Shown here piece by piece: positions 7 through 9,794 of a stretch of DNA of 9,794 bases. The DNA is from a virus (taxonomy: Duplodnaviria > Heunggongvirae > Uroviricota > Caudoviricetes): IMG/VR virus record IMGVR_UViG_2609459845_000003. One strand, given 5' to 3'. A program made the translations under genes and the position numbers. Each line of letters begins with the position of its first letter. Position 1 is the first letter of the stretch. The notes beneath the pieces were generated by a model, which worked only from the letters and a program-made list of their open reading frames with translations, was not told where the DNA came from and did no database searches.

Positions 7-1335
7 CTATGATATGCGCTGAAATAATCCTGCCTGTCTGATACCCGGAGATGATGTCCATAGCATCGGACCACATGCACGCCACGTGCCCGGTAAACGG
101 GTCTCCCCCACATTACCGGAAGCAACCAGGGGAGTACCATCCGAAAGGCAACATGCAGACAGTGATGAGCCGGCAATGGCTGAGCCCGGTGCCATATCCC
201 CCGAATAACTCGTCGCATAATATGCCGCAAGGACAAAAGAACCGACACCAAACAGTCCGCTGTCAGGACTTCCTGACGGTCCCTGAGGTCCTGCCGGACC
301 TGCGGCTCCCGTATCTCCTTTTGGCCCCTGAGGCCCTGCCTGACCTGCGGCTCCCGTATCCCCTTTTGGCCCCTGTGGTCCTGCCGGGCCTGCAGCTCCC
401 GTATCTCCCTTTGGCCCCTGAGGTCCTGCCGGACCTGCGGCTCCCGTATCTCCTTTTGGCCCCTGAGGTCCTGCCGGGCCTGCAGCTCCCGTATCTCCCT
501 TTGGCCCCTGAGGTCCTGCCGGACCTGCGGCTCCCGTATCTCCTTTTGGCCCCTGAGGTCCTGCCGGGCCTGCAGCTCCCGTATCTCCCTTTGGCCCCTG
601 AGGTCCTGCCGGACCTGCGGCTCCCGTATCTCCTTTTGGCCCCTGAGGCCCTGCCTGACCTGCGGCTCCCGTATCCCCTTTTGGCCCCTGAGGCCCTGCC
701 GGGCCTGCGGCTCCCGTATCCCCTTTTGGCCCCTGAAGCCCTGCCGGGCCTGTATCCCCCTTGTCGCCCTTCGGTCCCAGTGGTCCGCCCGGATCGCCCT
801 GCTCACCTTTCGGACCTGTATCCCCCTTATCGCCCTTGTCACCTTTATCCCCTTTCGGCCCCGGTGGCCCTGCCGGGCCTGTATCGCCCTTGTCCCCCTT
901 CTGTCCCTGTGGACCAGTTGCTCCGGTGTCGCCTTTCAGTCCCTGTGGCCCCACGGCAGTTTCGGCTTTCTCAGCAGCTTCTCGCGCCCTGCGCACAGCC
1001 TCATCCGCCGCCGCTTCCAGCTTCTTCAGTGCATCAGGATAATACGCTGCATCCGTTTCACGGAGCAGAAAGGCATTCAGGGTGCCCGGTTCGTCGTCGG
1101 CCATGACATCAATCTCGCCGGCGCATGCCGGCTGACGACCTTCCACGCACAAGGTCACACGATAACGCCCCGGCTCAACCTGCATGCTGTAACTGCCCGT
1201 TTCGCCTGGCTGGTGCTCTGCCACCGTGGTGACTATCACCGTCTCACTCGTTCGCGTGGCTTTCAGCTCTATGGTGCAGTCCGGTACCGGTTTTCCTGTA
1301 CCATCCTTCAGCACACCTGAAATCTGTACTGACAT
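7..1335 (-). CDS. stf: Side tail fibre protein (Stf-like) with a lambda-Stf-type N-terminal domain, a ~232-residue collagen-like Gly-X-Y shaft and an 82-residue C-terminal tip
   Basis: The N-terminus [28 protein letters not shown]... resembles the lambda Stf / prophage tail-fibre N-terminal domain. Residues 129-360 are uninterrupted G-X-Y triplets ([16 protein letters not shown]...). The ATG at 1333-1335 is preceded by a G-rich Shine-Dalgarno. The tail-fibre assembly gene expected downstream would lie left of the window. Confidence 0.85.
301..750. repeat. Ten tandem direct repeats of a 45-bp unit inside stf, with degenerate copies extending across roughly 256-951
   Basis: Read directly from the sequence: unit TGCGGCTCCCGTATCTCCTTTTGGCCCCTGAGGTCCTGCCGGGCC and close variants at 301, 346, 391 ... 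706. Units 3-8 alternate between two variants, giving a 90-bp higher-order period. Each unit encodes 15 residues (five Gly-X-Y triplets) on the minus strand. Confidence 0.95.
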
Positions 1336-2108
1336 ATTCCCCCCACAAAAAAGCCCACCAGAACCGGCGGGCTGTCATAACTCTGTGTTACCTGGCTATG
1401 GTAGTTCACCGTCATCTGCTGACCACCAAACTGCTCCGCATCCACCTGCATCCCCACAATGGCCGTGTTCGGGTAGCACTGTTTCACATCGATGATTTCG
1501 GTGTATGACGACCACAGCGTTCTGTTCTGCAGCTGGTCCGTGGTGCTGTCCGCCGTCTCCCTGACCATCCGGATGTTAAAGGGGCGGGGAGGCAGATTAT
1601 CCAGAATCACCGAGGCCAGGAACTGTGAGGTGGTCTTGCCGTTAATGGTGACATCCTTTTCTGTCACCCAGTTACCGTTACGCTGTAACTGAATCAGCAG
1701 ACGGACAGAGGACGGATTACGGTCACCCTTTGACGTGGTCTCCACCAGTGACTGCACCCCGAAGGTCACCCGCAGGCGGTCAATGTTCGCTGACGTAATG
1801 GTGCGTGTTACCGGTTTTGCCCTGGTCACTTCGACACCCAGTACAGTTTCAGAGCCGGAGGACTCAAAGCCTTCCGGTGGTGTCTGCTCCTGCTCCCCGG
1901 CACGCCAGACCGCGGTCACACCGTGTATCACGGGATTACCGTCCGTGTCCGTCAGCGGGGTTTTGTTCACCAGAATACTCTGCAGGCTTTTCACCGGGCC
2001 TTCTATCGGTCCCTCACCAATCGCATCAATCACGCTCATCATCTGCGTGGATTTGAGATTGTCTTTCGCCTCACGAGGCGTGTGTGCCTTACCGCCACCT
2101 TTTCCCAT
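1308..2108 (-). pseudogene. J: Tail tip / host-specificity protein J-like, N-terminal fragment only (~237 homologous codons of an expected ~1130)
   Basis: MGKGGGKAHTPREAKDNLKSTQMMSVIDAIGEGPIEGP...TLWSSYTEIIDVKQCYPNTAIVGMQVDAEQFGGQQ matches the lambda gpJ N-terminus. Homology is lost after ...NYH (about 1398), and the frame then runs through the stf upstream intergenic region to a stop at 1308. A good Shine-Dalgarno (GGGGAAGG) precedes the ATG at 2106-2108. Confidence 0.85.
1346..1373 (-). terminator. Rho-independent terminator (minus strand) immediately upstream of stf
   Basis: On the minus strand AGCCCGCC pairs with GGTGGGCT (one G-U pair) across the loop GGTTCT, followed by TTTTTT. It lies 10-40 nt upstream of the stf start codon. 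Confidence 0.45.
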
Positions 2109-2211
2109 ACAGCCTTCCCCTGAATAAATTAACCGCCACTTGCCATTCCGTACAGAAGTCGGATATCCTTCGCCCGAAAAGCATGAAACACATTTCTGCC
2201 ATGCTAAAGAG

Positions 2212-2247
2212 AAACCCCGGTATCAGCAGATACCGGGGTTTTCTTTC
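2212..2247. terminator. Strong GC-rich hairpin with T-rich tracts on both sides, a possible bidirectional intrinsic terminator
   Basis: CCCCGGTATC (2215-2224) pairs with GATACCGGGG (2229-2238) across a 4-nt loop, extendable by AAA/TTT. It is followed by TTTTCTTTC on the plus strand and TTTCTCTTT on the minus strand. Confidence 0.5.
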
Positions 2248-2313
2248 ATGCCCACCGATAATCCTGTTGGTTAAAACCGGTAATGGCATAAAAATTCTGA
2301 ATATCTTCACATT

Positions 2314-2341
2314 TTCACAAACTGACCGTGGCGCGTATAAT
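2314..2341 (+). promoter_or_regulatory. Candidate sigma70 promoter pointing rightward, antisense to the phage late genes
   Basis: TTCACA (2314-2319), a 16-nt spacer, then a perfect TATAAT (2336-2341), with an AT-rich tract upstream (2291-2313) that could act as an UP element. Confidence 0.4.
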
Positions 2342-2347
2342 TTCTCT

Positions 2348-2446
2348 GCGTTAATTTTTTTGTCGTGATATAAGAATAATTCCTTACACTTAATCTTCGT
2401 AACTCTCCCGCAGTTCCTGTCCGCGATCACTGCGGGATTTTTTTAT
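2348..2446 (+). ncRNA. Hypothetical small non-coding transcript (~100 nt) bounded by the candidate promoter and an intrinsic terminator
   Basis: There is no ATG-initiated ORF between the predicted start site (~2348) and the terminator T-tract (2438-2444). The interval lies in a 343-bp AT-rich gap between I and J. This is structural inference only; I recognise no homolog. Confidence 0.25.
2406..2446 (+). terminator. Rho-independent terminator, plus-strand orientation
   Basis: A 9-bp stem, TCCCGCAGT (2406-2414) pairing with ACTGCGGGA (2429-2437), encloses a 14-nt loop and is followed by TTTTTTT (2438-2444). The opposite strand has no T-tract after the stem. Confidence 0.5.
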
Positions 2447-2451
2447 TCTTT

Positions 2452-3117
2452 TTACCCCTGCCGCCCGATAACCACGACCTTTCCGCCCCCGCCTTCATCA
2501 CGGGTGCTGATGTCCTGGGATATACGGCGGGAGCCAACCAGCATTTCCCCGTAAGGCACCGGCATCGGGTTCCCCTGGGCAATCATGTTATCCAGCGAGG
2601 AAAAGTACGTGTTCTGTCTGCCGTTATCCGTTGCGCGGTAATCCGGTGTTTTTGCCTTCGGGGCCAGCATCTGGGCCACACCGCCCAGTATCATGCTGGC
2701 ACCCAGTGAAAACAGCATCGTGGTGGCAGAAAAACCACCGGCACTCAGGGCTGTACCCCATAACGCCATCGAGCCTCCGGCCGTGAAGAAAGAGCCCACG
2801 ATGGCTGCCGCCCCCAACACAATCTGCAGTCCACCCTTTCCGGCCCCGGCCAGTCGCGGCACAATGTGGATGACCGTTCCCTCACCCAGCTGTTCGTGAA
2901 GGCGGGCGTACACCACCTCCGGTGCCGTGTCTTCACCGGCAATACGTATCTGGTACCAGCCTTCGTTCATCTGAAGGCGAAAGCCCGGCATCTGCATCGA
3001 CAGGGCGCGAATGGCTTCCGCTGCCGTGTTCACATACAGGCTGAGGCGGCGGCCAAATCGTTGTAAATCCCCGTGGTTGCCCACGGTTGAGCCAGAGATA
3101 ACAGCTTCCACCATCAT
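2452..3117 (-). pseudogene. I: Tail tip assembly protein I-like; the native N-terminus (~20 codons) is missing and replaced by FII-derived sequence
   Basis: From ...GDLQRFGRRLSLYVNTAAEAIRAL... through ...FSLGASMILGGVAQMLAPKAKTPDYRATDNGRQNTYFSSLDNMIAQGN...GKVVVIGR the ORF resembles lambda gpI (ubiquitin-like tail assembly protein). The first ~15 codons (MMVEAVISGSTVGNH) are FII DNA read in a different frame. Confidence 0.7.
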
Positions 3118-3403
3118 CCGGCGAAACCCGGTCTATCCAGAAGTTTTCCTCACCGATGGTCAGCGTGTCTCCACGCCGCAGTTGCCGCACATCATCAGTC
3201 CGGACAAACAGGGACGGGCTGGAGCCTTCAACGCGCACGCCCTGTCCGGCATAGCTGATATTTTCAGGGTCATCAAAAACACCACGTATTACTGCGCCGG
3301 ACTGCTCACCGGATGTCATGGTGGCTGACGTTCCCATGTACCCGCGTATCGTTTCATCGGCGCGGGCAATGGCAGCATCGAACAGGTTATCGAAATCAGC
3401 CAC
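2933..3403 (-). pseudogene. FII: Head completion / head-tail connector FII-like; the C-terminus is replaced by out-of-frame read-through into the I region
   Basis: MADFDNLFDAAIARADETIRGYMGTSAT...DRVSPDDGGSCYLWLNRG matches lambda gpFII (117 aa as recalled) to about residue 108. In place of the short native C-terminus the frame runs on for ~48 codons (QPRGFTTIWPPPQPV...) across sequence that encodes the I protein in another frame. Confidence 0.75.
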
Positions 3404-3414
3404 AGCGCCTCCCG

Positions 3415-3810
3415 TTATTGCATTCTGGCCAGGCCGCGCTCTGTCATTTCAGCTGCCACACCGGCAGAGACACGGAACGCCGTTCCCGGCAGCACAAATG
3501 CCACAGTGTCATCCCGCGTGGCGTGAAGTGCATCAGTATGCAGCGTCACCAGTGCCACGACCGTGACCAGAGCAGCCGTATCAATCACGGTATCCGGCTG
3601 CGCTGATACCACCTCATTTTCATGTCCGGTCAGCGCATTTTCCGGGCTGACAGATGTGTCCTGACCGGCAGCGTCATCCGTGTCATCAAGCTCCTCTTCC
3701 AGCTCTGCCACACGGAGCACCAGTTCTTCTTTCGTCCCCGTCAGGCTGACATCACGGTTCAGTTGCTCACCCAGCACCTGAAGACGGGCAATCAGTTCAT
3801 CTTTCGTCAT
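3415..3810 (-). CDS. FI: DNA-packaging protein FI-like, 131 aa
   Basis: MTKDELIARLQVLGEQLNRDVSLTGTKEELVLRVAELEEELDDTDD...AEMTERGLARMQ matches lambda gpFI. The start is the ATG at 3808-3810 with GGAGGAG immediately upstream on the minus strand. The ORF-track start at 3849 is an upstream in-frame extension. Confidence 0.9.
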   Translation of the reverse strand: MTKDELIARLQVLGEQLNRDVSLTGTKEELVLRVAELEEELDDTDDAAGQDTSVSPENALTGHENEVVSAQPDTVIDTAALVTVVALVTLHTDALHATRDDTVAFVLPGTAFRVSAGVAAEMTERGLARMQ

Positions 3811-3851
3811 GGACTCCTCCACAGAGAGAAAATGGCCCCGAAGGGCCATGA

Positions 3852-4877
3852 TTACGCCAGTTGTACGGACACGAACGCATCAGGATCAGCCAGCAGCATC
3901 AGCGGTGCTGACTGAATCATGGTGAACTCACGCGCCGGATCGCCGGTGGTCACCCAGTTTTTCGGGTAGCGGGCAGAGGCGTTAATACCTTCGCGCTGTG
4001 CGTCCGCATCCTGAATGCAGCCATAGGTGCGCAGACCGCGTGCCTGAGTGTTCCCCAGCACCATCGTGTTGTCCGGCAGGAAGTTCTTTTTGACGTCGTT
4101 TTCCACGTACTGTCCGGAATACACGACGATCGCCGTATCGCCATACATCCCCTTATAGGACACCGCTTCGCCCAGGTCTTTTACCGCTGTCTCCAGCTCG
4201 GAATTAGAGCCGCGACGGGTATCCAGCTTCTCCTTGACGGCTTTGAAGGAACGGAACAGCGCCCAGCCTTTCGGATCAAACACGATGATATTCACCACGC
4301 CGCTGGCGTTCAGCGCGTAGGCTTCGATATCGTCGGTCGGGTCATACGTGGACTTGTCACGCTTGCTCCACTCCGTGCCGCCGGACTGCGTGATGTTGTT
4401 CGCCGCACTGCGGCCCATATCCACCTCAACCGGATCGAAGGCTTCACCGGTCATGGTGTATTTGCCCTTGAGCACGGCAGAAACGGCCTGCATCTCTTCG
4501 ACCTGAGCAATGGCCAGCTCTTCGTCACGCATGTTCTGCATGATGATGCGACGGCGGCGGTAAGTCGGGTCCGCCAGATTCTGCGGATCTTCATCCGGCA
4601 GGCGACGCAGGGTCATCTGCGGATTCACTTCATGCTTGGGTTTGACATATCCCGGCGTAAATTCAGAGGTGGAGCCGCCACGGGAACGGATAACCTCACC
4701 GGAAACAATCGGCGAAACGTACAGCGCCATGTTTACCAGTCCCGGAATTTGTGAGAGATAGACTTTCTCCGTAGTGAAGGGATAGCTCTCACGGAAAAAG
4801 AGACGCAGAAACAGCGGATCAAACTTAAATTTCTGCTCATTTGCCGCCAGCAGCTGGGCGGTTGTGTACATCGACAT
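3852..4877 (-). CDS. E: Major capsid protein (lambda gpE-like, HK97 fold), 341 aa
   Basis: MSMYTTAQLLAANEQKFKFDPLFLRLFFRESYPFTTEKVYLSQIPGLVNMALYVSPIVSGEVIRSRGG...FVSVQLA is near-identical to lambda gpE with the same length. The 55-nt D-E spacer matches lambda. Confidence 0.95.
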   Translation of the reverse strand: MSMYTTAQLLAANEQKFKFDPLFLRLFFRESYPFTTEKVYLSQIPGLVNMALYVSPIVSGEVIRSRGGSTSEFTPGYVKPKHEVNPQMTLRRLPDEDPQNLADPTYRRRRIIMQNMRDEELAIAQVEEMQAVSAVLKGKYTMTGEAFDPVEVDMGRSAANNITQSGGTEWSKRDKSTYDPTDDIEAYALNASGVVNIIVFDPKGWALFRSFKAVKEKLDTRRGSNSELETAVKDLGEAVSYKGMYGDTAIVVYSGQYVENDVKKNFLPDNTMVLGNTQARGLRTYGCIQDADAQREGINASARYPKNWVTTGDPAREFTMIQSAPLMLLADPDAFVSVQLA

Positions 4878-4932
4878 AAAAAAATCCCGTAAAAAAAGCC
4901 GAACAGGCGGCCTTTAGTGATGAAGGGTAAAG

Positions 4933-5265
4933 TTAAACGATGCTGATTGCCGTTCCGGCAAACGCGGTCCGTTTTTTCGTCTCGTCGCTGGCAGCCTCCG
5001 GCCAGAGCACATCCTCATAACGGAACGTGCCGGACTTGTAGAACGTCAGCGTGGTGCTGGTCTGGTCAGCAGCAACCGCAAGAATGCCAACGGCAGCACC
5101 GTCGGTGGTGCCATCCCACGCAACCAGCTTACGGGTGGAGGTGTCCAGCATCAGCGGGGTCATTGCAGGCGCTTTCGCACTCAATCCGCCGGGCGCGGTT
5201 GCGGTATGAGCCGGGTCACTGTTGCCCAGCGGCTGGTAATGGGTAAAGGTTTCTTTGCTCGTCAT
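4933..5265 (-). CDS. D: Head decoration protein (lambda gpD-like), 110 aa
   Basis: [43 protein letters not shown]...FAGTAISIV is near-identical to lambda gpD. The true start is the ATG at 5263-5265, two codons inside the ORF-track start. It sits 9 nt after the C stop, as in lambda. Confidence 0.92.
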
Positions 5266-5274
5266 AAACATCCC

Positions 5275-5880
5275 TTACACTGGTGTGTTCAGCAAATCGT
5301 TAACGGCATCAGATGCCAGGTTACCTGCAGCCAGCGGTGCCGGTGCCCCCTGCATCAGACGATCCAGCGCAGTATCACTGCGCGCCTGTGCACTCTGTGG
5401 TGCTGCGGCCAGAATGCGGCGGGCCGTTTCCACGGTCATACCGGGGGGTTCTGCCAGCACGCGGGCCTGTTCTTCGCGTCCGTGAGCCTCCTCACAGTTG
5501 AGGATCCCCATAATGCGGCTGTTTTCTGCCGCAACCGCAGCGTTGATCTGCGCGTTCACGTCCGGCTGCGCCGCGCTGGCGTTTTCGCCCTCCATCGCTG
5601 GCACCACGCCAGTAACGTCAGCCTGCGAAGCAGTGGCTGAAACAGTTGTTGATTGAGTCTCTTTGGTCATTCGCCCTCCTGAGAGACGGGATTTACGTGC
5701 ATCCAGTGCATCACGCATGATGGTGATCGCATCGGTACTGTTAACAAGTTCATCAGCCAGTCCGGCATCAATGGCCTCCTGACCGCTGTACACTGCAGCC
5801 TCGGTATCCAGCACAGCCTGCACGGACAGGCCGGTATATGCCGACACCTTCTGTGCAAACATCCGGCGGGTTGCATCCAT
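5275..5880 (-). CDS. nu3: Scaffolding protein Nu3-like, an in-frame nested gene sharing the C-terminal ~201 codons of C
   Basis: An internal ATG at 5878-5880 in the C frame begins MDATRRMFAQKVSAYTGLSVQ..., which corresponds to the lambda Nu3 start as recalled. The nested C/Nu3 arrangement is established for lambda. Confidence 0.7.
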   Translation of the reverse strand: MDATRRMFAQKVSAYTGLSVQAVLDTEAAVYSGQEAIDAGLADELVNSTDAITIMRDALDARKSRLSGGRMTKETQSTTVSATASQADVTGVVPAMEGENASAAQPDVNAQINAAVAAENSRIMGILNCEEAHGREEQARVLAEPPGMTVETARRILAAAPQSAQARSDTALDRLMQGAPAPLAAGNLASDAVNDLLNTPV

Positions 5881-6594
5881 CCGGGACTGCAGTGTTTCCC
5901 GGACATCATCCGGTAGATGGCTGTAGGGGTTGCCATCCACCTTATGGCTGCCGCTGTAAATCAGCGTGATTTCCACGCCCTGTTTCTCCAGCGCAGCACC
6001 GTAATTACTGTGAGCCATCATGACGCCGATGGAGCCTGTCCGGGCGGTCTGCGTGACCAGACGCCGGGAGGCGGCACTGGCAAGCAGCTGACCTGCGCTG
6101 CAGTTCATGTCATTGGCCAGCGCCCATACCGGCTTTATGTCACGCACACGGGCGATGATGTCAGCGCAGTCAAATGCCCCTGCCACCATTCCGCCGGGCG
6201 TGTCCATATCCAGCAGAATGCCGTCCACCATCGGGTCGCTGGCAGCCTGTTGCAGACGGGCGATAATGCCGTTGTAACCAGTCATCCCCGAATACGGCTG
6301 CAGCGCCCGCGTCCGGCAGACCAGCGTGCCGGAAACCGGCAGCACGGCGATGCCGTTCATGACCTGATAACTGCGGGCCTGTCGTGGTCCGTCATCATTA
6401 ACGGATAACGCCAGCTTCGCGGGTGCCTCTCCGGCAGTCAGGCTGTCACCGGACACCGCATCCGTCAGGCGGCTGATCCCAAGCTGGCCTGCAAGCGCAC
6501 AAAAGAAAACCCGCGCATAGGCGGGTTCAAGCATAAGCGGCTCATTAAAGGCCATGCTGGCAATATGCGGGAGATTACGCAGCTCTGCTGTCAC
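5275..6594 (-). CDS. C: Capsid assembly/maturation protease (lambda gpC-like, S49 peptidase family), 439 aa
   Basis: (V/M)TAELRNLPHIASMAFNEPLMLEPAYARVFFCALAGQLGIS... matches lambda gpC throughout. The start is GTG at 6592-6594, preceded by a strong Shine-Dalgarno (AGGAGGAG on the minus strand, 6597-6606). It overlaps the B stop by 20 nt as in lambda. The ORF track extends further upstream to a non-homologous start. Confidence 0.9.
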   Translation of the reverse strand: MTAELRNLPHIASMAFNEPLMLEPAYARVFFCALAGQLGISRLTDAVSGDSLTAGEAPAKLALSVNDDGPRQARSYQVMNGIAVLPVSGTLVCRTRALQPYSGMTGYNGIIARLQQAASDPMVDGILLDMDTPGGMVAGAFDCADIIARVRDIKPVWALANDMNCSAGQLLASAASRRLVTQTARTGSIGVMMAHSNYGAALEKQGVEITLIYSGSHKVDGNPYSHLPDDVRETLQSRMDATRRMFAQKVSAYTGLSVQAVLDTEAAVYSGQEAIDAGLADELVNSTDAITIMRDALDARKSRLSGGRMTKETQSTTVSATASQADVTGVVPAMEGENASAAQPDVNAQINAAVAAENSRIMGILNCEEAHGREEQARVLAEPPGMTVETARRILAAAPQSAQARSDTALDRLMQGAPAPLAAGNLASDAVNDLLNTPV

Positions 6595-7747
6595 TCTTCT
6601 CCTCCTCTGTTGATTGTCGCAGTCCGGATTCAAATGCCGCAGCCGCCCAGGCGGGCGGTTTAAGACCGGCTGCACGGCGCTCCATCGTTTCACGGACCTG
6701 CTGGGCAAAAATTTCCTGATAGTCGTCACCGCGTTTTGCGCACTCTTTCTCGTAGGTACTCAGTCCGGCTTCTATCAGCATCACCGCTTCCTGTACTTCT
6801 TTCAGACCATCGATGGCCATACGACCGGAGCCTATCCAGTCACAGTTCCCCCAGGCGCTGCGGGCTTCCTGAAAGCTGAAACGCGCTTTTGAAGGTAACG
6901 TCACCACGCGGCGAACGATGGCCTCTTCCAGCCAGCACAGAAACATCTGGCTCGCCTGACGGGATGCGACGAATTTTCGCCGCCCCATAAAGTACGCCCA
7001 CGACTCGTTCGCACTGGCCCGTGCCGTGGAATAGCTCATCTGGGCGTAATTCCGGGAAAGCTGCTCATACGAGACACCCAGCCCGGCAGCGATATACCGC
7101 AACAGTGACTGCTCAAACACGGAGTAGCCGTTATCCGTATCCTGAGCCGTCTGCAGGTTCAGTGAGTCACCCGGCATCAGGTGCGGCACTTTTGCGCCTC
7201 CCAGCCGAACCGGTGCTGCGGCGTAATACGCGGCAATTTCACCAATCCAGCCGGTCAGCTTGTCCCGCTGCTCCTGACTGTTCGCGCCCAGAATAAAATC
7301 CATCGCTGACTGCGTATCCAGCTCACTCTCAATGGTGGCGGCATACATCGCCTTCACAATGGCGCTCTGCAGCTGCGTGTTCTGCAGCGTGTCGAGCATC
7401 TTCATCTGCTCCATCACGCTGTAAAACACATTTGCACCGCGGGTCTGCCCGTCCTCCACGGGTTCAAAAACGTGAATGAACGAGGCGCGCCCGCCGGGTA
7501 ACTCACGGGGTATCCATGTCCATTTCTGCGGCATCCAGCCAGGATAGCCGTCCTCGCTGACGTAATATCCCAGCGCCGCACCGCTGTCATTAATCTGCAC
7601 ACCGGCACGGCAGTTCCGGCTGTCGCCGGTATTGTTCGGGTTGCTGATGCGCTTCGGGCTGACCATCCGGAACTGTGTCCGGAAAAGCCACGACGGACTG
7701 GTATCCCAGGTGGCCTGAACGAACAGTTCACCGTTAAAGGCGTGCAT
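6575..7747 (-). pseudogene. B: Portal protein (lambda gpB-like) lacking roughly the N-terminal 143 residues
   Basis: The ORF matches lambda gpB from MHAFNGELFVQATWDTS... through to the C-terminus ...ESGLRQSTEEEKSDSRAA. Upstream of that internal ATG (7745-7747) the frame holds only 8 unrelated codons back to a TTG at 7771, then the A stop codon. Only 15 bp separate A from this ORF, so there is no room for the missing portal N-terminus. Confidence 0.85.
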
Positions 7748-7790
7748 GCAGTGCCGCACGGGCAGCGGCAAGTTCTTCCTGTCGCGTCAT
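7734..7790 (-). pseudogene. W: Remnant of head-tail joining gene W: only the first ~15 codons, then out-of-frame sequence and a stop
   Basis: An ATG at 7788-7790 overlaps the A stop in the ATGA arrangement and encodes MTRQEELAAARAALH, the lambda gpW N-terminus as recalled. It then reads ARL-stop instead of continuing as DLMTGKRV..., so the rest of W is missing. Confidence 0.7.
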
Positions 7791-9712
7791 TCATCCTCTC
7801 CGGATAAGGCACGGGCGTAATCTGCCAGTGTTTTCTTGTTGGTTGCTGCACCATCCTCTTCCTTCAGGCTCGCCAGCAGTGCACTGAGATCCAGCTGCCA
7901 GCGGGAAATACTGATGCGCAGCGCCGCCAGCGCATAAACGAAGCAGTCGAGCGCCTCATTGCGTCGTTTTTTGCTGTCCCACAGTATTTTTTTCCTGCCA
8001 TCCACCCATTTTTCGACCTGCTCTTCAGCCGTCAGCTGCTGCGCTTCGGTCAGATCAAAAATATCCGGGTTATTCGGGAAGTGAACGGCACCGGGAAGCG
8101 GTTCATCCCCTTCCGGCGTCAGTGTGAAGCGGTTATAAATCTGCTCTTTCGCGGTATCCGTACCGATTTCGGTAAGGTAAACCCCGTTTTTGTTTCGCTT
8201 ACGTGGCATGCTGGCCACCGGCTTTCCGTAGACGGATGCCCCTTTAATGGGGATCACCCGGAACAGCCCATGTTTTTTCGAGCGTTCATACACGATGGTC
8301 GGGTCAATCCCGCCAGTATCCCAGCAGATACGGGATACCGACATTTCTGCACCATTCCGGCGGGTATAGGTTTTATTGATGGCCTCATCCACACGCAGCA
8401 GCGTCTGTTCATCGTCGTGGCGGCCCATAATAATCTGCCGATCAATCAGCCAGCTTTCCTCACCCGGCCCCCATCCCCATACGCGCATTTCGTAGCGATC
8501 CAGCTGGGAGTCGATACCGGCGGTCAGGTAAGCCACACGGTCAGGAACGGGCGCTGAATAATGCTCTTTCCGCTCTGCCATCACTTCAGCATCCGGACGT
8601 TCGCCAATTTTCGCCTCCCACGTCTCACCGAGCGTGGTGTTTACGAAGGTTTTACGTTTTCCCGTATCCCCTTTCGTTTTCATCCAGTCTTTGACAATCT
8701 GCACCCAGGTGGTGAACGGGCTGTACGCTGTCCAGATGTGAAAGGTCACACTGTCAGGTGGCTCAATCTCTTCACCGGATGACGAAAACCAGAGAATGCC
8801 ATCACGGGTCCAGATCCCGGTCTTTTCGCAGATATAACGGGCATCAGTAAAGTCCAGCTCCTGCTGGCAGATGACGCAGGCATTATGCTCGCAGAGATAA
8901 AACACGCTGGAGGGGTCATCCGGCGTCCATTTGAGGCCAAACGGCGTCTCTTTGTCGCCAAATTTAAGATACTGCTCCTCCCCGCAGTGCGGGCAGGCAA
9001 CATGAAAACGCATAAAATGCGGGGATTCACTGGCTGCACGCTCAATCTGGCAGGTGCCTCTCACTTTGGGCGTGGAGCCACGGATGGACTTTGGCCAGAC
9101 CGAGCCTTCAATACGCTTATCGCCCAGGAACGTCGGAGAGCCTTCCTGTTCAATATCCTCATCAAAGGCAGCAAGTTCATCATAACCCGCCACATCCACT
9201 GACTTTTCACGGTAGTTTTTTGCCGCTTTACCGCCCAGGCACCAGAAGCCACGACCATTGGAAAAACGCTTCATGGTGAGCGTGTTATCCCGGTGCTTTT
9301 TGCCATACCACGGGGCCAGCGCCAGCAGCGACGGAATATCACGAATAGTCGGTTCAACGTGGGTTTTCATAAAGTTCTCGGCATCACCATCCGTCGGCAA
9401 CCAGATAAGGGTGTTGCGCTGCTTATGCTCTATGAAGTAGGCATAAACACCCAGCAGCATTTTGGAATAACCAACACGGGCAGACTTCACCACATTCACC
9501 TCACGGATGTAGTCGCTGCCCATCGCATTCATGATGGCCCGCTGAAAGGGCAGTGTTTCCCAGCGCCCTTCCTGGTATGCGGATTCTTTCGGGAGATAGT
9601 AATTGGCATCCGCCCATTCAACGGCGGTCTGTGGCTCCGGCCTGAACAGTGAGCGAAGCCCGGCGCGGACAAAATGCCGCAGCCTGTTAACCTGACTGTT
9701 CGATATATTCAC
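7787..9712 (-). CDS. A: Terminase large subunit (lambda gpA-like), apparently full length at 641 aa
   Basis: The 641-aa ORF (MNISNSQVNRLRHFVRAGLRSLFRPEPQTAVEWADANYYLPKESAYQEGRW... ending ...ADYARALSGEDE) is near-identical to lambda gpA as recalled and has the same length. The start is GTG at 9710-9712, the stop TGA at 7787-7789. Confidence 0.95.
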   Translation of the reverse strand: MNISNSQVNRLRHFVRAGLRSLFRPEPQTAVEWADANYYLPKESAYQEGRWETLPFQRAIMNAMGSDYIREVNVVKSARVGYSKMLLGVYAYFIEHKQRNTLIWLPTDGDAENFMKTHVEPTIRDIPSLLALAPWYGKKHRDNTLTMKRFSNGRGFWCLGGKAAKNYREKSVDVAGYDELAAFDEDIEQEGSPTFLGDKRIEGSVWPKSIRGSTPKVRGTCQIERAASESPHFMRFHVACPHCGEEQYLKFGDKETPFGLKWTPDDPSSVFYLCEHNACVICQQELDFTDARYICEKTGIWTRDGILWFSSSGEEIEPPDSVTFHIWTAYSPFTTWVQIVKDWMKTKGDTGKRKTFVNTTLGETWEAKIGERPDAEVMAERKEHYSAPVPDRVAYLTAGIDSQLDRYEMRVWGWGPGEESWLIDRQIIMGRHDDEQTLLRVDEAINKTYTRRNGAEMSVSRICWDTGGIDPTIVYERSKKHGLFRVIPIKGASVYGKPVASMPRKRNKNGVYLTEIGTDTAKEQIYNRFTLTPEGDEPLPGAVHFPNNPDIFDLTEAQQLTAEEQVEKWVDGRKKILWDSKKRRNEALDCFVYALAALRISISRWQLDLSALLASLKEEDGAATNKKTLADYARALSGEDE

Positions 9713-9794
9713 TCAGCAACCCCGGTATCAGTTCATCCAGCGCGGCTGCTTTGTTCATGGCTTTGATGATATCCCGTTTCAGGAAATCAACATG
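9687..9794 (-). CDS. nu1: Terminase small subunit (Nu1-like), C-terminal fragment; the 5' end lies beyond the right edge of the window
   Basis: The minus-strand frame entering at 9794 translates to ...KAMNKAAALDELIPGLLSEYIEQSG-stop, matching the lambda Nu1 C-terminus as I recall it. The stop (9687-9689) lies inside the start of A, reproducing the lambda Nu1/A overlap. Confidence 0.8.
   Translation of the reverse strand, partial: HVDFLKRDIIKAMNKAAALDELIPGLLSEYIEQSG

Follow-up and report, generated by a model that had tools for sequence, protein, structure and literature searches.

The window analyzed here, a stretch of 9,794 nucleotides that comprises, in reversed orientation, the entire contig JNRH01000099.1 of a draft E. 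coli genome (GCA_000704585.1), is very probably the late-gene region of a lambda-like E. coli prophage that is decaying by deletion, with the W-B segment lost through recombination between two CATG tetranucleotides. Every gene in it is encoded on the minus strand, to which the gene and junction coordinates given below refer.

Breakpoint and reading frames of the W-B junction

An earlier note, made from the letters of this DNA, had proposed a deletion of about 590 bp that joins approximately codon 15 of W to approximately codon 144 of the portal gene B. A base-by-base comparison with lambda (J02459) and with sister prophages confirmed this deletion to the base, with lambda nt 2678 (in W codon 15) joined on the minus strand to nt 3264, one base ahead of the portal Met144, such that W codon 15 runs into B codon 144. 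On the W side of the join, window positions 9794..7745 align gaplessly with lambda 629-2678 at 98.7% identity, and on the B side, positions 7748..3090 align with lambda 3264-7925 at 97.2% identity. These two registers, the A/W register and the B register, overlap by 4 bp, namely CATG at window 7748..7745, and the missing sequence amounts to exactly 589 bp (lambda 2679-3267; 589 mod 3 = 1), the same figure by which the note had found A to lie too close to the end of B. In a megablast search of 50,697 phage records, the 2,001 bases of window 6500-8500 spanned 2,590 lambda bases in two pieces, with 97-99% identity to lambda and to phages closely related to it; a resemblance of 97-99% extending across 6.7 kb could not have arisen by chance.

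The CATG retained at 7745..7748 (junction 1) corresponds to two copies in lambda, at 2675-2678 and 3264-3267, between which the 589 bp were lost, and the ancestral sequence of this region is provided by two sister prophages, L004 and L011. The suggestion that the junction lies within GCACTGCATGCACGCC and reflects a short microhomology was therefore well founded, CATG being that microhomology.

The reading frames around the junction are likewise as first described. The A stop codon, TGA at 7789..7787, overlaps the W start codon, ATG at 7790..7788, in the same manner as in lambda, and W codons 1-15 follow intact. Beyond the junction, the W frame continues through Ala-Arg-Leu and terminates at a TAA (7736..7734), which leaves an 18-codon stub, compared with 68 codons in intact W, with the product MTRQEELAAARAALHARL*; this stub occupies 7734..7790, precisely the span that the note had delimited. 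The portal gene remnant (6575..7747) comprises B codons 144-533, or 390 aa from the first in-frame ATG, with residues 1-143 absent. Its start codon, ATG at 7747..7745, is B codon 144 and opens the reading MHAFNGELF; it shares the frame of A but comes only after the stop codon of A.

Gene content and further deletions in the window

The gene order of the window and its overlapping stop and start signals are those of the lambda Nu1-A-W-B-C-D-E-FI-FII region, with 97-99% nucleotide identity over the A, truncated B, C, D, E, FI, and FII segments. The 3' end of Nu1 (terminase small subunit, 9687..9794) is cut by the contig end, with the lambda alignment beginning at nt 629 and a PF07471 match present in sister contigs. 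It is followed by an intact 641-aa A (terminase large subunit, 7787..9712; PF05876 and PF20454) and, beyond the W stub and the B remnant, by intact C/Nu3 (S49 protease and scaffold, 439 aa, 5275..6594), D (decoration protein, 110 aa, 4933..5265), E (major capsid protein, 341 aa, 3852..4877), and FI (131 aa, 3415..3810). The lambda-like spacing that had been noted from C to FII is borne out, as C, D, E, FI, and most of FII are collinear with lambda.

Unlike lambda, the window lacks not only the 589 bp but also Z through K, most of J, and lom, and its alignment with lambda and related prophages resolves into five collinear blocks separated by three gaps. The two gaps other than the W-B deletion, which lie on the same contig, removed tail genes, and went unmentioned in the earlier note, leave the prophage defective several times over. 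At junction 2 (3073..3075), as judged against L009 on the left and L016 on the right, FII extends to codon ~110 and, across the microhomology CAC, continues directly into K, of which the last ~15 codons are left. The bulk of K has gone together with Z, U, V, G, T, H, M, and L, a loss of about 6.9 kb when measured on lambda. This creates a fusion ORF of 156 aa (2933..3403) that consists of FII residues 1-110 and 46 out-of-frame residues; the 193-aa tail assembly protein I (2452..3033) is intact. At junction 3 (1397..1398), J codon 237 is joined, across the microhomology TA, to a position 2 nt past the lom stop codon, with L016 as the reference, and the rest of J and lom (about 3.3 kb) are lost. 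The J remnant (1308..2108) is accordingly a 266-aa stub, with the N-terminal 237 residues of J followed by 29 unrelated residues, compared with about 1130 residues in the full protein, and it lies directly upstream of a side-tail-fibre-like ORF of 442 aa (7..1335) that carries a prophage tail fibre N-terminal domain (PF08400) and collagen repeats (PF01391). The I segment and the N-terminal J segment of the window are 72-79% identical to lambda and 98.6% identical to L016.

Several minor features of this part of the window were also observed. The collagen-like repeats within the 442-aa ORF have a 45-bp periodicity (window 281-915), and almost all differences among the four sister assemblies that carry the W-B junction fall within them, the ORF being 397, 412, 427, or 442 aa long, which suggests either variation in repeat number or collapse of the repeats during assembly. 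The spacer between I and J (2109-2451) is about 340 bp long in the window and in L016, versus 60 bp in lambda, and it holds an inverted repeat of about 42 bp (window ~2206-2246), which was detected as a reverse-strand self-match. In several prophages, one of them otherwise intact-looking, the tail-fibre/collagen ORF overlaps the next ORF, a DUF4376 ORF, by ~55 nt (for example, L018 3954-5282 and 5228-5899; L016 14086-15210 and 15156-15827); this overlap represents either a conserved two-ORF layout or a frameshift, and it is reminiscent of the split stf of laboratory lambda. An Rfam scan of the whole window gave zero matches.

Recurrence of the junction and the sister prophages

The junction is present in identical form in three other E. 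coli draft assemblies (L007, L013, and L014), whose contigs, namely JNRI01000098.1 (10,164 bp), JMGU01000151.1 (9,230 bp), and JNRL01000097.1 (8,065 bp), end at different positions and align gaplessly to the window across all junctions. Outside the collagen repeats, L007, L013, and L014 differ from the window by 0, 3, and 1 SNPs, respectively, and these real SNPs, together with the different contig ends, indicate separate strains and separate assemblies. The carriers bear the source names E. coli 2-005-03_S4_C1, 2-011-08_S3_C2, and 3-073-06_S3_C1, a naming scheme that we take to be that of a cohort study of E. coli from the guts of children. In a published typing table, 2-005-03_S4_C1 and 2-011-08_S3_C2 are listed as phylogroup A, ST43 (PMC8923075), which is the type of sister strains with the same lesions. 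Five contigs on record encode exactly this 390-aa portal remnant.

The evidence for the junction consists of assemblies, and three of the four belong to a single accession series (JNRH, JNRI, and JNRL) that was probably processed by the same pipeline; the window itself, moreover, is a short contig, broken off at repeats on either side, from a draft assembly of short reads. A misassembly or sequencing error, with the real genome intact, is nonetheless very improbable: the same junction occurs in all four separate assemblies in spite of their different boundaries and SNPs, two further junctions of the same kind recur in L017 and L018 on contigs of 34 and 86 kb, respectively, and the 4 bp of shared sequence are far below assembler k-mer lengths, which would make a misjoin in the assembly graph implausible.

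Searches of larger collections placed the junction nowhere else. A 50-mer spanning the junction matched nothing in 50,697 phage records, and among 5,426 complete E. coli genomes its only match was to 28 bases of the W side; the exact 38-mer was absent from the GTDB species-representative genomes. In IMG/VR, the exact junction pattern had a single match, an 8,065-bp contig equal in size to L014. No record of a 398-aa version of the ORF that starts at a TTG, and no independent re-assembly of the junction (e.g., in Logan), was found. The W-B junction was not found elsewhere in the collections searched, and it is a new instance of documented prophage decay.

The ancestral state of the region is preserved in sister prophages. 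The A protein is 100% identical in 11 contigs, and four prophages that encode this identical 641-aa terminase, namely L004 (complete genome CP170296.1), L006, L009, and L011, retain the 589 bp and are 100% identical in DNA to the window throughout A and W codons 1-15. The 589-bp segment is identical in L004 and L011, where it encodes a normal 68-aa W and a normal portal N terminus (the intact sister portal has 533 aa), and downstream of the junction L011 differs from the window at only 2 of 3,514 bases. As the 589 bp persist in sister prophages whose flanks are identical, the intact state is ancestral, and the deletion is recent and lineage-specific.

While L009 and L011 are intact-looking copies of this lineage, other members carry deletions of their own. 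In L004 and L006, a deletion connects B codon ~347 with the tail-fibre gene at its 3' end, and the overlap there is 5 bp (L004 11923-13358). L005 and L010 have several deletions, one of which fuses E to the collagen region (L005 6080-8340) in a 344-aa ORF with Phage_cap_E and Collagen domains. The alignment registers at the L004/L006 and L005/L010 deletions overlap by 4-8 bp. Over 3.2 kb that take in junctions 2 and 3, L017 and L018 match the window at 100% identity; an extra deletion in both, between a nanS-p-like gene and the 3' end of E, has eliminated A through D. The W-B junction is absent from L004, L006, L005, L010, L017, and L018.

The window ends inside phage genes; L018, identical to it over 3.2 kb, runs on into the chromosome. 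The flanks of L004 and L018 contain an integrase, tRNA-Arg(CCT), a yfdC-like gene, mlaA, and fadL, an argW-type site (the tRNA-Arg(CCT) is seen in L004, and L018 extends into the integrase, yfdC-like gene, mlaA, and fadL). The lineage at argW comprises an intact-looking form and at least four differently deleted forms.

Two further observations concern these sister loci. Although L017 (8600-15157) and L018 (5900-12356) have junctions 2 and 3 in common, their chromosomal flanks differ, with a ykgJ-like gene, potB, potA, pepT, roxA, and phoQ in L017 and the argW site in L018; this mismatch suggests either recombination between two prophages or a chimeric contig. In its upstream late region (1268-5030), L004 has the antiterminator Q, a DNA methyltransferase, a cluster of tRNA-Met/Arg/Arg, and a gene for a 641-aa nanS-p-like esterase, a layout typical of Stx-type lambdoid phages; no toxin genes were called in L004 1268-5030.

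Consequences for gpW and the portal, and decay of the prophage

In lambda, packaging-competent proheads do not form without gpB, and heads are not joined to tails without gpW. Only residues 1-15 of the gpW adaptor (PF02831) are left in the window, followed by ARL and a stop codon. In the lambda cryo-EM structure, gpW consists of a bundle of two helices (residues 4-22, 37-54), a hairpin (23-36), and a portal-binding C-arm (55-68) (PMC10721106), all of which lie beyond or span residue 15; as read from the stub, gpW cannot be made. The same structure divides gpB into wing (24-249 and 368-452), stem (250-279 and 343-367), clip (280-342), and crown (453-511) regions (PMC10721106), and the deletion takes 120 of the 226 residues that make up the first wing segment. 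Consistent with this, the portal remnant matches PF05136 strongly (E = 3.4e-62; 211 bits) but only over profile positions 110-354 of 354, and thus lacks the full-length portal domain with its N-terminal wing segment (gpB 24-249). The retained part is 99% identical to other gpB sequences. Judged by this profile match, the portal ORF represents a fragment of a gene rather than a complete PF05136 member. Any product of it would start at or near Met144 and, from the structure and from classical genetics, should not form a working dodecameric portal; with over half of the first wing segment lost, the earlier opinion that a portal so truncated is unlikely to support head assembly can be upheld on these structural grounds.

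Whether the fragment could nevertheless have been put to use by the host was considered. The ORF is intact and in frame with A, it keeps the stem, clip, and crown regions, and three routes to its expression can be envisaged: re-initiation after the W stub, whose stop codon lies 9 nt downstream of the B remnant ATG, so that translational coupling is conceivable; initiation at an in-frame TTG at 7771, which has the sequence AGGAAG 5 nt upstream; or an A-portal fusion produced by UGA-C read-through. A truncated portal expressed in one of these ways might benefit the host, for example by poisoning the portal rings of superinfecting lambdoid phages. That such a co-option has taken place is highly unlikely, however, as no Shine-Dalgarno sequence precedes the ATG at 7747..7745, the lesion is limited to a handful of near-identical strains, and L017 and L018, which share junctions 2 and 3, have nonetheless deleted the A-to-E block that includes this ORF. 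Since these two strains lost the ORF, there is no sign that selection keeps it, and the SNPs are too few for selection to be measured. It is equally far-fetched that the truncated portal acts specifically as a dominant-negative subunit that disrupts portal-ring or prohead assembly of superinfecting lambda-like phages, in which case the deletion would be a host defence benefit instead of neutral decay.

A functional lambda-like lineage that naturally uses the Met144 start and does without W has a next to negligible probability: gene callers do annotate a clean 390-aa ORF with a Phage_portal_2 match, but no phage record has the junction, the lambda-like matches listed span both flanks including the 589 bp, sister prophages with identical flanks encode a 533-aa portal and a 68-aa W, the lost residues belong to a conserved wing domain, the tail-shaft genes are all gone from the same element, and the one further record of 390 aa (P0002/L019) comes from a full-length gene interrupted by a nonsense mutation.

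The latter record was also rejected as a second case of the junction, as its W is intact and codon 124 of its portal gene has changed from TGC to TGA, a nonsense mutation. Gene calling resumes at Met144 of this full-length portal gene, giving calls of 123 aa and 390 aa, and L019 (3905-5506; ENA ERZ27318602 k141_1308) is an independent inactivation of the portal gene. A further candidate, a phage satellite (PICI or capsid-forming PICI), was raised by the combination of retained head genes and lost tail genes. It was ruled out by the 97-100% DNA identity of the genes to those of ordinary lambda-like prophages and by the existence of full-length versions of the lineage, as well as by the broken portal and by the deletion of the head block in sister strains.

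In keeping with decay by deletion as the preferred reading, the element combines lambdoid synteny and high identity in its morphogenesis genes with the absence or truncation of essential virion genes, namely W, the B N terminus, the FII C terminus, Z, U, V, G, T, H, M, L, K, and the J C terminus. Because W, the B N terminus, and the tail genes are lost, the element would produce no infectious particles on its own, and it is likewise presumed to be non-inducible; this expectation applies to the element as seen in the window, which breaks off within Nu1 on one side and within the tail-fibre repeats on the other, with the rest of the prophage and any trans-complementing lambdoid prophages outside its view.

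The anatomy of the W-B junction is that of a microhomology-mediated deletion. CATG is present at both ends of the deleted segment in L004 and L011 and in one copy in the window, and the flanks are 100% identical. The two registers abut directly, the junction is free of filler, insertion sequences, long repeats, and sites for site-specific recombination, and the ancestral sequence has no longer repeat or hairpin that coincides with the W-B breakpoints. All three junctions of the window are clean, with 2-4 bp of microhomology and no filler DNA or mobile element, and every junction examined across the sister series has an overlap of 2-8 bp. By the microhomology expectation formula of the illegitimate-recombination literature, random joining would yield overlaps of at least 4 bp at ~1.6%, of at least 3 bp at ~5%, and of at least 2 bp at ~16% of junctions.

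From this anatomy, RecA-independent illegitimate recombination is the most likely origin of the deletion. A single event between CATG tetranucleotides 589 bp apart, by replication slippage or by end joining, would have removed W codons 16-68 together with B codons 1-143. Two more deletions of the same type would account for the loss of Z through K and then of most of J and lom. These lesions are young and clonally inherited, and probably a by-product of deletional bias in the absence of selection for virion production. The intact A, C, D, E, FI, and I genes fit a recent event, and they are also compatible with selection to keep them.

Dismantling by deletion is well documented for the defective lambdoid prophages among the cryptic prophages of E. 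coli. In E. coli K-12, the lambdoid prophages DLP12, Rac, and Qin were fixed by loss of morphogenesis genes and multiple internal deletions; these remnants are old and widely shared in the species, and almost all of their head genes are gone. In contrast, the prophage in the window is young, with 0-3 SNPs among its carriers and flanks 100% identical to those of intact relatives; it is limited to a few close isolates, and its A, C, D, E, and FI genes are intact. The series of sister strains therefore offers a small natural snapshot of the speed of prophage dismantling and of the type of event involved. The individual deletion has little importance beyond correct annotation, by which the 390-aa "phage portal protein, lambda family" should be recorded as a gene fragment, the W stub should not be called a gene, and the prophage should be listed as defective. 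Finally, whereas the classical lambda B and W mutants are laboratory amber point mutants, here a natural 589-bp deletion hits both functions.
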